A stretch of 64,000 nucleotides of DNA. Source: Chiloscyllium plagiosum (taxonomy: Eukaryota). A model generated the notes under the pieces. It saw nothing but the letters and a program-made list of their open reading frames with translations, had not been told where the DNA came from and ran no database searches. Positions 1-63,099 of this stretch are shown in pieces (position 1 is the stretch's first letter; the number at the start of each line of letters is the position of its first letter). Made by a program: the position numbers and the translations under genes. The stretch covers positions 10,982,911 to 11,046,910 of the forward strand of contig NC_057754.1 in NCBI RefSeq assembly GCF_004010195.1, written 5' to 3'.

Positions 1-1341
1 GTTTTAACACTTCTGAAGAGTTCCAGCAAACCTACCGCCCAGGATATCAGTGTCCCTTCAGTTTAAGTGCAACCTGTCCTCTCTGTACAGGAGCCTCCTT
101 CCCCAAAAGGTATCCCAATTTGGTGATCATAGCTTGAAAATTTCTTTGATGCTTGTATTCATGTGTTTATATTACTTTCGTCCTAAAAAGGTGTTTTTAA
201 TATCGAAGTGTCCCTGAATTCGAGCTTTCTGTCCAACGTTAACATGGTGCACATTCTGACCTTGTTCGTTCAGGATGTGTTCATTAGATTTCCCTTTTCG
301 TAAGTTTTTCTCCCCCCATGAATATCAGACAACCTTTAGAGTCATGCTGGGGAACCAAGCAAGTTAAAAATATAAATAACGTAACGCAGGGTCTCAATCA
401 CTTGTCTTCCTCGCATGCTCGATGTGAGCAATAGCTAACCACCGAACAATCACGATCAGCCACCCAGCAATGCAGAACTGCAATGCTAGTAGTCTCAACT
501 ATCCTCAATGTGGGAGAAGCCTCCCGTCGACAACACATATCAATTGCTCCTGACTGCTCTACTTTGCTGGTTAGCATTCATTTCAACCATTTTGATTTTA
601 ACCTTTCGTTGCTCTCAGACTGTCATGATGAAAAAATATTATTGACCGTCCTTGATGCAACCACAATTGTTGGCTATCAGCAATTGCTCTCTTTTATCAT
701 ATACAAAACCCATCAGTAGATGATAATATAAGCGATAAGTTAAAATTCTTGTCTGCCCAGGTCTTTTCAAAATATTTCCAGAATACTTCATCAGATCATG
801 TTCATTTTGGGGCTCAGTACGTGGACACTCATCCTACTGTAACTACGAAATTAGTGCAAAGGTCGGACTGTAGAGTCCCGAAATCACTGGAATTGTTTTT
901 GTGATAAAATTACGTCATTATGACGACTTTATGGGATAAATCATATTCTGCTGCGGCAATAATATCCATGCACTTCGCAATGTTGATTTTTTAAAAGAAA
1001 TCTTGTCACAAAATAAATGCTAATTTCCGCGTTGTGAAATTAAAACAAACGCTATGTTGTTCATCCAGTGCATGATTGAACAACCTAATAAATGACGTTT
1101 CTATAAACGTGCAGTATAATACATTGAATGAAATGTATGAGCACTCCATTCTGCAACCACAATGAGTGCATTTCACCACACCACAGCGTAATAGCATATA
1201 ATGCATAAACATTCTGGAAACCTTTTGATAGCCCCTATATTCAGATAATGTTGATTTTGGAAAAGTTCAGCCCGATTTTGAAAATAAAATATAAGATTTG
1301 TGGAGATTTTCGAAGAAAAATCGTTGGCAACCATTACTTAC

Positions 1342-1411
1342 CCGGAGCACCAACAATAGCAATAATGGGATAGCAAATGGCATAAAAGAGCCCTTTTGGT
1401 GCCCCATGCAT
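1342..1411 (-). CDS. First coding exon of a third GPR139-like class A GPCR paralog (main exon outside the window, below position 1)
   Basis: Reverse strand reads ATG...CCG G|GTAAGT and encodes MHGAPKGLFYAICYPIIAIVGAP. It is 70 nt with a phase-1 donor, the same length and architecture as exon 1 of the two complete paralogs, and has the same upstream 15-mer. Confidence 0.85.
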
Positions 1412-1485: not shown

Positions 1486-1500
1486 GAGAGTCTCCAGAGG
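1486..1500 (-). promoter_or_regulatory. Conserved proximal promoter motif CCTCTGGAGACTCTC (third paralog)
   Basis: Lies 75 bp upstream of the ATG; identical to the copy at 62417-62431. Confidence 0.7.
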
Positions 1501-2446
1501 TCCAAGTATTTTGCAACACGCACCTTAGTCACAGCTCGATTAACAGTCACAGTTTCATGATTTCTTTTTGTAATATTAGGAAAGCGAATAATATAATTGT
1601 ACTTTTGAACCAATGGGGTCAGTTAACTCAGTTGGCTGGACGATTGGTTAGTGATGCAGAGTGACACCAATACAATTGATCAAATTCCACATTGGCTGAG
1701 GTTACCATGAACGTACATGTTTCTCAATTTCTCCTATTGCCTGAGGGCTGGTGGCCCTTTGGTTAATCTCACCAGCAGTCATTTCTCTCTAACGAGAGGT
1801 GAGCTCTATGATCGTCTTGGACTTTGCAAATCTACCATTAACTGTGAGAATTAAGTGACTGCATCAGTGCCAATATTTGAAGTATGGCAGTTAAGTGTCA
1901 TGTTTCCTGTTGTTCTCAAATATGGAATAAAGGCTGCCGTAAGACCTGCTGCTCCCTGACCAAGAAATGTACTCTCTTGAAAGAGGAATTTTAGGTAGAA
2001 TGAGGCATACTCTGCACAACAGAAAGCGATATTTTGGGAGGAAAAATCCCTGATATTTATATCGTAGTGTCAGATGTATTGACCTTTCAAAATTGAAATC
2101 TCAGATATGATGTAGGAGGTGATAGTGCATGGCAGTGTGTTTGTATGGACTGACTGAACTGCTGCATCAGTGTGAGGTTCAATGCAGAGAGATGATCTTG
2201 GGGATATATCAAATAACTGTTTCCTCGTTTTTACCCAAAATGGCAGCAACTTGTCATTGAAACCTGGAGACGTTCTCCTCTTCAAAACAAAACAATCAAA
2301 AGCAAAGAAAAAGACAGGATATTCCTACTTTTGTAATGGACCCAACAGAACCACCTGCAAGTATATCAAGAAGGTAGCCTAGACACTAAATAGGTCATAC
2401 CACTCAGCATATAGCAAAACACTTTTTCTTTCTCCCAGTTACATTC

Positions 2447-15134: not shown

Positions 15135-15927
15135 NNNNNNNNNNNNNNNNNNNNNNNNNNNNNNNNNNNNNNNNNNNNNNNNNNNNNNNNNNNNNNNNNN
15201 NNNNNNNNNNNNNNNNNNNNNNNNNNNNNNNNNNNNNNNNNNNNNNNNNNNNNNNNNNNNNNNNNNNNNNNNNNNNNNNNNNNNNNNNNNNNNNNNNNNN
15301 NNNNNNNNNNNNNNNNNNNNNNNNNNNNNNNNNNNNNNNNNNNNNNNNNNNNNNNNNNNNNNNNNNNNNNNNNNNNNNNNNNNNNNNNNNNNNNNNNNNN
15401 NNNNNNNNNNNNNNNNNNNNNNNNNNNNNNNNNNNNNNNNNNNNNNNNNNNNNNNNNNNNNNNNNNNNNNNNNNNNNNNNNNNNNNNNNNNNNNNNNNNN
15501 NNNNNNNNNNNNNNNNNNNNNNNNNNNNNNNNNNNNNNNNNNNNNNNNNNNNNNNNNNNNNNNNNNNNNNNNNNNNNNNNNNNNNNNNNNNNNNNNNNNN
15601 NNNNNNNNNNNNNNNNNNNNNNNNNNNNNNNNNNNNNNNNNNNNNNNNNNNNNNNNNNNNNNNNNNNNNNNNNNNNNNNNNNNNNNNNNNNNNNNNNNNN
15701 NNNNNNNNNNNNNNNNNNNNNNNNNNNNNNNNNNNNNNNNNNNNNNNNNNNNNNNNNNNNNNNNNNNNNNNNNNNNNNNNNNNNNNNNNNNNNNNNNNNN
15801 NNNNNNNNNNNNNNNNNNNNNNNNNNNNNNNNNNNNNNNNNNNNNNNNNNNNNNNNNNNNNNNNNNNNNNNNNNNNNNNNNNNNNNNNNNNNNNNNNNNN
15901 NNNNNNNNNNNNNNNNNNNNNNNNNNN
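15135..15927. other. Assembly gap (N run)
   Basis: Contiguous Ns. Confidence 1.
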
Positions 15928-27307: not shown

Positions 27308-27563
27308 GTCATAGAATCCCGACAGTGTGGAAACAGGCTGTTCAGCCCAACAAGTCCACACCGACCCTCCAAAGAGTAACCCACTCAGACCCATTCCCCT
27401 ACCCTATTATCCGATATTTATCCCTAACCAATACACCTAACCTACACATCCCTGAACATTATGGGCAATTTAGCATGGCCAATTCGCCTAATCTGCACAT
27501 CTTTGGATTGTAGAAGGAAACCGGAGCTCCCAGAAGAAACCCACGCAGACATGGGGAGAATGT
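27308..27563 (-). mobile_element. 5'-truncated HE1 SINE just upstream of the paralog A promoter
   Basis: Similarity to the other HE1 copies. Confidence 0.85.
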
Positions 27564-27662
27564 AATCATCTTGTGGATGTGACAAGTTGTCGGCATAATA
27601 ATGTGAGACAATCTGTTTCCTCATCAAATTCTAGCTGAAGTGCAAGTCAAAATTTAATTATG

Positions 27663-27689
27663 CCTCAGGAGACTCTCACTCTATATAAA
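27663..27689 (+). promoter_or_regulatory. Conserved promoter motif CCTCAGGAGACTCTC plus TATA box (TATATAAA, 27682-27689), paralog A
   Basis: 14/15 match to the motif of the other two paralogs, about 80 bp upstream of the ATG and preceded by TTAATTA. Confidence 0.7.
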
Positions 27690-27757
27690 TCAAGGCTGTT
27701 TCAATGTGTTTCACAACTAACATTGACAATGAACATTTCTTTTGTTGCTGAAGGGCA

Positions 27758-27827
27758 ATGCATGATCCGGCAAATGGACCTATTTTTGCCATTTGTTATC
27801 CAGTTATCGCTATTATTGGTGCCCCTG
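27758..27827 (+). CDS. GPR139-like class A GPCR, paralog A, exon 1 (N-terminus and first part of TM1)
   Basis: ATG CAT GAT...GCC CCT G|GTAAGT encodes MHDPANGPIFAICYPVIAIIGAP and splices in frame to the acceptor at 28225/28226, giving GAPANL. Confidence 0.9.
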
Positions 27828-28225
27828 GTAAGTAGTGGATAGAAAATGAAAAATGTGTTTGAAATATAGCTATTTTCATTCAGGACAGGGCCAAGTTTTA
27901 CTCACGTTTAATACAATCTACGTGTATGAGATTTCAGCCAGGTTTCAGCATATTTCAGTGAATTGAATGATAGAACGTTGTGTTCTGATGAACGACAGTG
28001 CATAATCTGTTTATTAAGAAACATTGTGAAAAATGTTATGCTGTATGAAAGGATGTCCTTTTCTTTGATTGCTGGAGTATTAACTGCCAGCAATTAACAA
28101 AAGTTGAGAGCAGTTAATCTCTGGATAAGGAAAATGGGCGGATCTGGAGTAACAGACTAAATGACACAGAAGCTGAATTGAAAATAGTCCTTTTGTAAGA
28201 ACTCATCTCTCCTGATCTCTTACAG

Positions 28226-29127
28226 CCAATTTGATGGCGATTGTAATCTTATGCCGAGGACGATGTGGACTCTCACCATGCATGACTTGTTATTTGGTGG
28301 CAACAGCCGTAGCTGATTTCTTTGCCATCGTCTTTGGCTGCATCCTCAACCGTATCAGTGGCATTTATTTTCGGTACAGCATCTTGTCCACCACACCGTT
28401 ATGCTCTCTCAGCCTTGTACTGATTCGGTGCACACGAGATGTCTCAGTCTGGCTAACAGTGGCCTTCACCTTTGACCGTTTCATAGCCATCTGCTGCCAG
28501 AACCGAAAGGCCAATTACTGCACTGAGAGAAATGCATCGCTGGTCACAGGAATAGTTTGTGCGCTGAGCTGTATCAAAGATATCCCTTTCTACTTCATTT
28601 TTAAGCCCTTGTACATCCTGGAAGGGGTTGCCTGGTTCTGTGACATTAAGATGCCTTTTTATACCTTGCCATTTTGGCAGGTCTACCACTGGATGGATCG
28701 CATCTTGACCCCATTTCTTCCGTTCTTCCTTATTTTGTTGCTCAATGTCTTGACGGTCAGGCACATCCTAATAGCCAGCAAAGCTCGTCAGAGGCTACTG
28801 GGTGCCAGGAATTGTGGAGACACGGAAATGGAAAACCGCAAGAGGTCCATTGTCCTACTGTTTGCCATCTCATTCAGCTTCCTCCTCCTGTGGGCCACTT
28901 ATGTCGGACATTTCCTCTATGTGCAAGTTACAGGTGAGGGTTACTACAGCGGCCAGGATTCCACTGACCTACGTTTCATCCTTCAAGAGACAGCAAACAT
29001 GTTCCAGTTACTCAATTCCTGCAACAACGTTTTCATCTATGTAATATCTCAGAACAAGTTCCGAGAAGAACTGAAGAAGTTGCTGTTGTGCCCCTTCACG
29101 TCCTGCACTAGATGCTTTAAACGGTGA
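28226..29127 (+). CDS. GPR139-like class A GPCR, paralog A, exon 2 (323 aa in total)
   Basis: Pyrimidine tract and TTACAG acceptor, then an uninterrupted ORF with rhodopsin-like TM segments: YLVATAVAD (TM2), SVWLTVAFTFDRFIAIC (TM3), ECL2 WFC, PFLPFFLILLLN (TM5), LLLWAT (TM6), NSCNNVFIY (TM7), FREEL (helix 8). These motifs resemble GPR139/GPR142-family receptors. Confidence 0.93.
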
Positions 29128-35445: not shown

Positions 35446-36249
35446 TATGTCTGCGATTCTTGGCACCCCGGACCCTCTGACGGGTTTTGTTGGCTGCTAA
35501 GGCATATCTGATCATCTGGACGTTGAGAAGCAGAATATGGAAGAATGGCAGAAATGGGATTAAGTTGCCAAACAGCCAGTAGTATCCATGCTAGAAGACC
35601 ACTTGTATAACGTGATCCTAATGTCACTAAATCAGAGCACTTCTTCCAGGATGTACAAGGGCTTAAAATGACTTTGAAAGGGCTATGTTTGACACAGTTC
35701 AGTGCACAAACTATCCTTGGGACTAGCGATGCAGTTCTCTTTGTGCAGTATCTGGCATTTAGGCTCTAGCAGCAGATAGCCATGCAATGGTCAGCAGATA
35801 TGCATGAGGCTGAGAGTATATAACGGAATGATAGACAAGGCACTGTACCAAAAAGAGAGATGGTTATAGTAGATGACGGTTGTAGTTTTAACTGGTAAAG
35901 TCTGCTGTTCATAATTTCTACCAGCACATAAAATATATTCATGTTTTTTTTTGAAATGCTGATTCCTATTAAGTACAGAAACCCGGTTCATGTTTTCTGT
36001 TAACTCAGAATTAACAGGTGAAGAGGATATTCTGCGAATATTGACATAATCTTCAACCTCTAACTCCAGTTAGAGTGGAGTGTGGCGCTAGACAGACATT
36101 CCACTCATACAGTTATGTTCATAAATGTAAATATTTAATTGTGCTCTGTCTTCGGAGGAATAACTGCGCCTCTATCTCTACTATTTGATCACCCATTGAA
36201 ATTTGATTCCCCATTTCCAAAGTAACATGCAGTACAATGGGAACTTCAT

Positions 36250-58907: not shown

Positions 58908-59809
58908 TCACCATTTTATACAACTTCTGAAGGTGGTGAATGGAAAGATTAGCACGTTCTTCAGCTCTTCGCGGAATTGTTTTTGGGCTACAGTGTAGAT
59001 CAAGATATTATTGCAGGAACTGAGGAATTGGAGCATGATAGCCGTCTCTTGAAGGATATATTGCGGGTCATTGAATTCCAGGCCACCAAAGTAGCCATCA
59101 CCTGAAATCTGCACGTACAAGAAACGTCCAACATACGTGGCCCACAGGAAAAGGAAGCTGAGAGAGACCGCAACGAGTAGTACAATGGACTTCTTGCGGT
59201 TGGACACTTCCTGGTCTGCACGATTCTCGGCGCCCCGGATCCTCTTGCGCGCTCGGTTGGCTGCTAATATGCTACTTATAGTCAGCACATTGAGCAGCAG
59301 AATGAGAAAGAAAGGGAAAAACGGTACTAAGATGTGATGCAGCCAGTCGTAGGTTTGCCAGAAAGGCGAATTATAATAGATTGATTTAATAATGCAAAAC
59401 CAGGGCACGCCGTTCAGGTTGTACAATGGCCTAAAAATGAAGTAAAAAGGGATGTTCTTGATGCAGCTCAGGGTACACACGATTCCTATCACTACTGAGG
59501 CCGTTTTCTGAGTACAATATCTGTTCTTCATGCTCTGGTGGCAGATGGCCACGAAACGGTCGAAGGTAAAGGCCACCGTCAACCAGACTGAGCCATCTCG
59601 GACTGCAAAAATCAGAGTACTGCTGAGTCTGCATGCAAAAGTGGTGCCAAGAGCAGTGTCTCGAAAGTAGATCCCGCCGATCCGGTTAAGGATGCACCCA
59701 TTGACGATGACAAGGAAATCACTCACCGCTATTGCCACCAAGTAGTAGGTGATGCAACAAGAGAGTCCACACCGACCTCGTTTTAGAACGACAATCGCCA
59801 AGAAATTTG
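58908..59809 (-). CDS. GPR139-like class A GPCR, paralog B, exon 2 (323 aa in total)
   Basis: Acceptor TCTCTCACAG|CA AAT TTC TTG. The 902-nt exon equals paralog A exon 2 in length and aligns to it without gaps (TFDRFVAIC, WFC, LFLWAT, SSCNNILIY, FREEL). Confidence 0.93.
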
Positions 59810-62262: not shown

Positions 62263-62332
62263 CAGGGGCACCAATAGCAGCGAGAATAAGATAGCAAATG
62301 GCAAAGATACGCCCATTCGCTGGCACGTGCAT
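62263..62332 (-). CDS. GPR139-like class A GPCR, paralog B, exon 1
   Basis: Reverse strand ATG CAC GTG...GCC CCT G|GTAAGA encodes MHVPANGRIFAICYLILAAIGAP; 70 nt, phase 1; intron 59810-62262. Confidence 0.88.
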
Positions 62333-62416
62333 CCTGTTTTCAGAAAGAATAGGTGTTCCTAAAGCAGTTGATCTTTGCATTATGTCGTATTGAAATCATC
62401 CAACATATATTCCAAA

Positions 62417-62431
62417 GAGAGTCTCCAGAGG
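62417..62431 (-). promoter_or_regulatory. Conserved promoter motif CCTCTGGAGACTCTC, paralog B
   Basis: Lies 85 bp upstream of the ATG, preceded by GCAAATTAATCC and followed by AATATAT. Confidence 0.7.
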
Positions 62432-63099
62432 ATGGATTAATTTGCAATATCTACCTCAGTTCCAAGTGAGTGAACAAACAGATTAGCTTATTTCCCGTTA
62501 AAACTTTGACAGAGCAATTGTATTTATAGAAGAACAGATGTTTGCAGATTCTGTGTTTGTCCCCATGCCAGCAACCATATTTTACATTGACGTCACTGGA
62601 ATCGTTGATGGGAGATTCTGGCTTGAAATCTCACCTCAGACTTCAACCTGACTCTTCTTTCTCTGCCACCTTCGCCAATTTTTTTTTGTTTGAAGTTGTC
62701 AGATAACTTTATGTATTGTTTTCATTACCCAATGATTTCACGTTCAATGGCCTCATGTTACCTATGTCGTAAATGGTTTCAGTCTGAAATATTTGAAACC
62801 ACAATTAGTCAAATTGGAGGGAAAATTAGGTGCAGAACATCCATTACATGGAAATAGTGGGTCGCGTTTACAGTGCATAATTTGTTCTGCTCAGCTAAAA
62901 ATGCTGGAGTAACCTCAAATTTTCATGTCTAGATTCTGAGTTTTTATTTCAAAGTAGCCATTGACAAATATCCTGATGTAACAAAACAAAGAGATTACCT
63001 AGTGAAGTAACAGCGGACACATGGTTTCGATTATTAGCATTAAGACCACTGCCATCAATGATATTGTTATTGCAATGTGGAAAGGCAAATGTCCCTACT

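Follow-up and report, generated by a model that had tools for sequence, protein, structure and literature searches.

A 15-bp word that has been retained nearly without change precedes the first coding exon of three paralogous receptor genes in a 64,000-nucleotide stretch of the Chiloscyllium plagiosum genome (referred to below as the window, i.e., the whole stretch of DNA that we analyzed), and it probably serves these three old family copies as a common on-switch. On balance, we favor its interpretation as a putative binding site in the proximal promoter that the paralogs inherited from their common ancestor and that selection has maintained. The sequence of the element, its position, its constraint and the family of the genes behind it can be read directly from the data.

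The Element and Its Three Copies

The pattern CCTCWGGAGACTCTC has three exact matches in the 64-kb window, one in front of each of the genes designated here A, B, and C. The copy of gene A (CCTCAGGAGACTCTC) is located at 27663..27677 on the plus strand and spans positions -50..-36 relative to the predicted transcription start; that of gene B (CCTCTGGAGACTCTC) is found at 62417..62431 on the minus strand, and that of gene C, identical to the gene B copy, at 1486..1500, likewise on the minus strand. These are the three sites at which the first-pass annotation of this DNA had reported the word, and its description of two identical copies and a single-base variant is accurate, since only the gene A copy (27663) deviates, by one base; 14 of the 15 columns are invariant. 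The end of the motif is separated from the ATG of coding exon 1 by 80 bp in A (ATG at 27758), by 84 bp in B (ATG at 62332) and by 74 bp in C (ATG at 1411), close to the 75-85 bp given for it previously. The 15-mer has sharp edges, the three bases just upstream being different in all copies, and two quasi-palindromes can be read directly off its sequence, CTC-WG-GAG and GAGA-C-TCTC.

A fourth match to CCTCWGGAGACTCTC, with two mismatches, is situated inside a SINE at 2703-2717 on the minus strand. Four matches with at most two mismatches thus compare to 0.22 expected ones, and a count of four was reached in none of 100 shuffles. No fourth promoter of the family was found in the 64-kb window, and inspection by eye of the N-terminal extensions of the protein models P0042, P0059, and P0109 revealed no clear translation of the motif.

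The Genes Downstream of the Element

Coding exon 1 of gene A (27758..27827, plus strand; 70 nt with a phase-1 GT donor) has homologous N-termini among its relatives, and exon 2 (28226..29127, plus strand) completes an intact class A GPCR of 323 aa. Gene B is built alike: a coding exon 1 of 70 nt with a phase-1 GT donor (62263..62332, minus strand) and an exon 2 (58908..59809, minus strand) that completes an intact GPCR, again of 323 aa. Gene C is known here from its coding exon 1 only (1342..1411, minus strand; 70 nt, phase-1 GT donor), its exon 2 being placed outside the window. The A and B proteins are 64% identical (208 of 324 codon positions); both genes have the MHxP first exon and are close to proteins of sharks and rays that carry the name GPR139.

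With exon 2 of gene A as the query, 953 protein clusters out of 2119 candidates were recovered at E <= 1e-5. By our own count, 105 of the 120 matches listed are named GPR139 and none is named "olfactory receptor"; a species is given for 116 of these 120, and all 116 are sharks or rays. The gene A protein is identical to a Hemiscyllium ocellatum protein at 274 of 281 positions, and the gene B protein to one from Chiloscyllium punctatum at 288 of 299. When a profile of 50 members was compared with solved structures, human GPR139 was the top match (E 6.7e-20; next 2e-13), and no odorant receptor structure was present among the best 60 of the 100 profile matches. Pfam 7tm_1 was detected in 50/50 members; 7tm_4 was matched weakly in 8/50 (best E 5.7e-5), with 15.2 bits for gene A versus a cut-off of 27. 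These comparisons place the genes within a large GPR139-related expansion of sharks and rays and not among the odorant receptors, and the olfactory receptor setting that had been suggested for these promoters is therefore not supported. The likeness to the GPR139/GPR142 class A receptors resides in this best structural match of the shark profile; GPR139 of bony vertebrates is a single-copy gene, whereas its shark and ray relatives form a large family with a short first coding exon. In bony vertebrates GPR139 is described, in the accessible part of the report, as a conserved habenular gene (PMC7946892).

In a quick tree built from 78 of the 120 listed matches together with A and B (80 rows), A clusters separately from B, with a protein of the whale shark (SH-aLRT 100); the A-B duplication is therefore older than that species split. 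The window also holds a decayed exon 2 fragment of a fourth family member, interrupted by stops and frameshifts (35456-35801, minus strand), to which neither a promoter nor a first exon in the window could be assigned, and an assembly gap of 793 N at 15135-15927.

In the public databases, many models for members of this family (P0001 and others) lack the 70-nt exon 1 or have it replaced by unrelated N-termini, and the closest match of gene A starts at a Met inside exon 2. Promoter studies that set out from the annotated starts would therefore be directed to the wrong region. Two public runs yielded 107 and 111 contigs on gene A, none of which covers its promoter; two single-cell RNA runs, sampled at about 2% and 6%, contributed no reads, a depth too low to count as a test, and a search of sequencing runs listed no RNA run carrying the sequence. 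The name GPR139 does not occur in four files of a bamboo-shark immune atlas or in one file of a catshark retina atlas, a negative with no bearing on expression, as the genes may go by other names there. Contigs of two public runs pile up at 27795-27869, the end of exon 1, to a summed depth of 600-980, with about 10-20 in the unique parts; this pile-up fits the presence of many paralogs in the species and is not to be read as a copy number. Metagenome scans returned no matches, and among open-licence PMC articles and bioRxiv we found no papers on the shark GPR139-like family or its promoters.

Constraint on the Element

An unbiased search for the best word common to the three 190-bp upstream regions returned the 15-mer, with summed mismatches of 2 as compared to a minimum of 11 in 200 dinucleotide shuffles and to 14 in an intron control. 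Since the upstream regions of A, B, and C are homologous, neutral decay is the proper null. At four-fold sites, A and B are identical in 44 of 92 cases (48%), with dS at 0.73-1.03. Simulated neutral decay (on a star tree, without indels, with the neutral rate taken from the A-B pair alone) gave P values of 0.0001, 0.001, 0.009, and 0.04 at pairwise identities of 0.48, 0.55, 0.60, and 0.65, respectively; at an identity of 0.70 (P 0.16) the footprint would lose significance. At the measured divergence it is significant, with the neutral distance of gene C as a caveat. An element invariant at 14 of 15 positions between genes whose A-B synonymous sites are 48% identical is thus a real footprint, documented by three promoters of one genome.

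The flanks are more diverged than the element, as claimed beforehand, with an identity among the three promoters of 0.53-0.62 when gaps are allowed and of 25-29/50 in register. A 60-bp block directly upstream of the motif (A 27603..27662, plus strand; B 62432-62491 and C 1501-1560, both minus strand) is colinear without indels, whereas the downstream spacer varies from 74 to 84 bp. In this block, 21 of 60 columns are invariant as compared to 4.6 in shuffles, and the identity peaks at shift 0 only; its level is only about the neutral one.

Core Promoter Anatomy

The core-promoter consensus consists of TATAWAWR at about -31 and an Inr at +1. In gene A, a TATA box (TATATAAA; 27682..27689, plus strand) starts 4 bp after the motif and is followed by the Inr-type word TTCACA (27710..27715, plus strand), which sets the predicted +1 at 27713 and the TATA box at -31. 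TATAWAWR is matched in full in A, with one mismatch in B, where it is degenerate, and with two mismatches in C, where it is absent. An Inr at +29..33 accompanies 1 of the 25 TATAWAWR sites in the window, and a TATA word would begin no more than 10 bp from the motif by chance with a probability of about 0.002. A constrained element in such a proximal-promoter position substantiates the promoter assignment made in the first-pass annotation, and both the TATA box of gene A and the upstream flanking words are present as quoted there.

One of these words, the homeodomain-type TAATTA of gene A (27655..27660, plus strand), has the in-register counterparts TAATCC in B (62434-62439, minus strand) and TACTTG in C (1503-1508, minus strand). 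TAAT is consequently found 8 bp upstream of the motif in two of the three promoters, and TACT in that of C. B and C have TTGCAAA in common further upstream of the motif (62440-62447 and 1507-1516, both minus strand), a word which we take to resemble C/EBP or octamer words; gene A reads GTCAAAA in register. A 5'-truncated SINE (27314..27563, minus strand) ends 99 bp upstream of the element of gene A, so that the intact proximal promoter of this gene measures about 150 bp. A search for upstream satellite arrays gave none near the three promoters among its 10 rows. The predicted 5' UTR of gene A contains an out-of-frame ATG at 27729 (plus strand) whose frame overlaps exon 1. Gene B has an in-frame upstream ATG at 62380 (minus strand) that would add 16 residues; the C. 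punctatum model P0059 likewise begins at this ATG.

Likeness to Mouse V1R Promoter Motifs

Mouse V1R promoters carry the motifs MV3, MV7, and MV12, reported in the accessible sections of PMC3247230 as not overlapping O/E-like sites; according to the same sections, MV12 was the only one to give a gel shift, in extracts of vomeronasal and olfactory tissue, and this shift was not competed by the Olf-1 site. Bases 1-10 of the shark element agree with MV7 (CMTCTGGRRA) at 10/10 positions in B and C and at 9/10 in A, and gene C also matches MV12 (GWNYTCTGGR). Exact CMTCTGGRRA sites occur twice in the 64 kb, in promoters B and C only. Such a match has a chance of about 1e-4 per 19-mer, or of about 1e-3 over the 12 motifs tested; those in B and C count as one inherited event, not as two tests, and the TCTGG core of the V1R motifs is not preserved in gene A, which reads CCTCAGG. 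Judged by sequence, MV7 is a better fit to bases 1-10 than EBF, with the caveats that it was chosen post hoc, that it itself resembles the loose O/E consensus, and that, according to the accessible sections of PMC3247230, it produced no gel shift. The likeness extends to the position near the predicted start of genes of a GPCR family. The differences are that this gene family is unrelated, that the 3' CTCTC of the shark element has no counterpart (MV15 was rejected as a poor fit to it), and that MV12 is, as far as these sections go, the only one of the three V1R motifs to have bound nuclear protein. A chance likeness is possible, and we do not claim a common origin.

Alternative Explanations

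The first-pass annotation had read the element as an O/E (EBF) site adjoining a TAAT homeodomain site. YYYCARRRR is a loose O/E-like consensus, and this part of the claim stood: it is matched without mismatch in A (plus strand), B and C (both minus strand), and the sole variable base of the 15-mer is limited to the two letters with which this consensus is still matched. The same consensus has 103 sites in the window and fits 2% of random 19-mers; TAAT lies within 20 bp of 30 of the 103, which detracts from its presence in register in A and B, and gene C has none. A relaxed EBF form, in our own wording TCYCNNGRGA, is met with one mismatch. Stricter comparisons turn out otherwise. EBF1 binds TCCCNNGGGA, according to the available text of PMC4312928; in the register common to the three genes, the motif (halves CCTC and GAGA) departs from it at three of eight positions and contains no intact TCCC/GGGA half-site, and about 16% of random 19-mers fit TCCCNNGGGA as well as B and C do. 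The MatBase O/E core, as printed in the part of PMC3247239 at hand, is missed at 2-3 of 11 positions, with a different best register for gene A, and the EBF 10-mer leaves five equally invariant bases of the 15-mer unexplained. PMC11643329 and PMC7804114 held no usable consensus in their accessible parts.

Known sites lend the EBF reading some backing. The mb-1 (Cd79a) site of B cells likewise combines an imperfect, CTC-containing half (ACTC) with a GAGAG flank, and the reverse strand of our motif has this flank in common and agrees at 10 of 13 non-spacer positions (hand count); mb-1 retains one perfect GGGA half, whereas the shark element has none (PMC2394523, accessible portion). The Lhx2/Ebf composite of the Greek Island enhancers, whose weak Ebf halves are tolerated (PMC5608512, accessible portion), resembles gene A in its TAATT followed by a degenerate Ebf-like 10-mer; the TAATT spacing in A equals that of the Sfaktiria composite probe in the 9-mer register and is one base longer in the 10-mer register. 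That composite is described there as marking intergenic enhancers with the homeodomain half as its conserved part, whereas the shark element stands in promoters and its homeodomain half is the variable part. Like mouse odorant receptor promoters, as far as these are covered in the available text of PMC3247239 and PMC5318403, the shark promoters belong to expanded clusters of class A GPCR genes and have their site close to the start; the loose O/E pattern of pyrimidines followed by purines, a neighboring TAAT (two of the three shark genes) and, in a subset, TATA are further common features. They differ in that their genes are not ORs, that the TCCC core is lacking and that gene C misses the homeodomain core; moreover, the shark element is a fixed 15-bp word in a fixed register, and the mouse OR sites are scattered and degenerate. 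Indirect counter-evidence, for a probe that is not specified there, is that MV7-type motifs gave no shift in extracts that shifted the Olf-1 site, in the sections of the V1R study available. A weak O/E site at bases 1-10 that cooperates with a homeodomain site upstream of it, in the manner of olfactory receptor promoters, is hence a conceivable but doubtful reading, though the main rival of ours, and the homeodomain plus O/E olfactory label fails strict sequence tests and is not established. Moreover, EBF1 is active in B cells, in adipocytes and in neurons of other kinds as well (PMC4312928, available text), so that olfactory expression would not follow even from a genuine EBF site.

Neutral survival, in which the word would be a lucky remnant of decay or a short gene-conversion tract with no function, has in its favor that any three homologous regions contain some best-kept window, that the neutral distance was taken without gene C, and that the third positions of exon 1 are identical at 13-15 of 23 sites. 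We nevertheless judge it very unlikely in view of simulated P values of at most 0.009 up to an identity of 0.60, the sharp edges with three adjoining upstream bases that differ in every copy, and a position next to TATA that chance does not predict. Just as improbable, in our estimate, is a transcribed element that acts as RNA or as a downstream-promoter element in the 5' UTR. The transcription start is only predicted, B and C are without canonical TATA, and the in-frame upstream ATG of B is used in a bamboo-shark gene model as well; set against this, the motif of gene A is followed by TATA and Inr, additional upstream ATGs would enter the leaders of A and B if these were longer, and the consensus RNA fold is weak (-3.2 kcal/mol), with no both-sided change in pairs touching the motif. 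With zero Rfam matches in addition, we rejected an RNA hairpin. The SINE at 2703-2717 carries the motif-like word CCTCAGGAGATTATC and other copies carry similar words, which raises the idea that the promoters acquired the site from a SINE. The SINE segment that follows the B box is motif-like in some copies and deleted in others (copies from 50253, plus strand, and 11211, minus strand). The motif agrees at 12-13 of 15 positions with a four-copy SINE consensus whose seed copy was picked for its likeness; a SINE model built without the seed copy matched no promoter, and its consensus agreed with the motif at 10 of 15 positions, the shuffle median. Since the promoter flanks also match the SINE only at chance level (11-12/45 and 7-10/30), we give next to no credence to this origin.

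We also compared the element with the consensus words for NF-kB, AP-2, STAT, and BREu. NF-kB reached 9/10 on the reverse strand with its GGG broken, AP-2 fitted gene A only, and STAT and BREu were set aside.

Proposed Mechanism

For the constrained proximal-promoter site that we favor, the following course of events would apply. The 15-mer would already have been present in the common ancestor of the GPR139-like paralogs, and selection would have retained it. Just upstream of the TATA region, it would be occupied by one sequence-specific activator or by two that abut each other, and transcription would start about 36 bp downstream of the motif; family members would thereby be given a common cell-type programme. 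A multi-finger protein or two adjacent factors would suit the 15 near-invariant bases, with their MV7-like 5' part and their GAGA-C-TCTC 3' part. EBF bound to a canonical site is probably not the factor. We infer where transcription starts, that a protein binds and activates, what kind of factor this is and in which tissue it acts, and it weighs against this mechanism that it builds on three promoters of one genome, of which that of B has a degenerate TATA and that of C none.

Significance for the Receptor Family

Promoter words common to receptor clusters are already known from OR and V1R genes; here, the constrained promoter element is real and the receptor expansion that it belongs to is apparently undescribed. 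A near-invariant promoter word provides a handle on this family: it can locate first exons missed by gene models, can serve as bait for the factor and is testable with reporters. That it resembles promoter motifs of chemoreceptors makes the olfactory epithelium a place to look for these genes, but is not evidence of their expression there.

In the accessible portion of PMC11979771, catsharks are credited with 2 canonical OR, 6-7 OR-like and about 32 V2R genes, and no GPCR is reported there among the top 50 genes of a catshark brain and olfactory library. The GPR139-like family of sharks and rays is far larger than the catshark OR or V2R sets. It might be an unrecognised chemoreceptor family, with the 15-mer as a family-wide promoter element read by a factor of the V1R/OR-promoter type, a reading that we put forward as rather unlikely. 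Expression in the shark nose, in microvillous neurons of the vomeronasal type, or in chemosensory cells of another kind would go along with it and is equally speculative, and we are no less tentative about a factor that would be EBF-like or a binder of MV motifs, of the same kind as at mouse V1R and OR promoters. If true, this chemoreceptor reading would offer an answer to the question of how sharks smell with a handful of OR genes.
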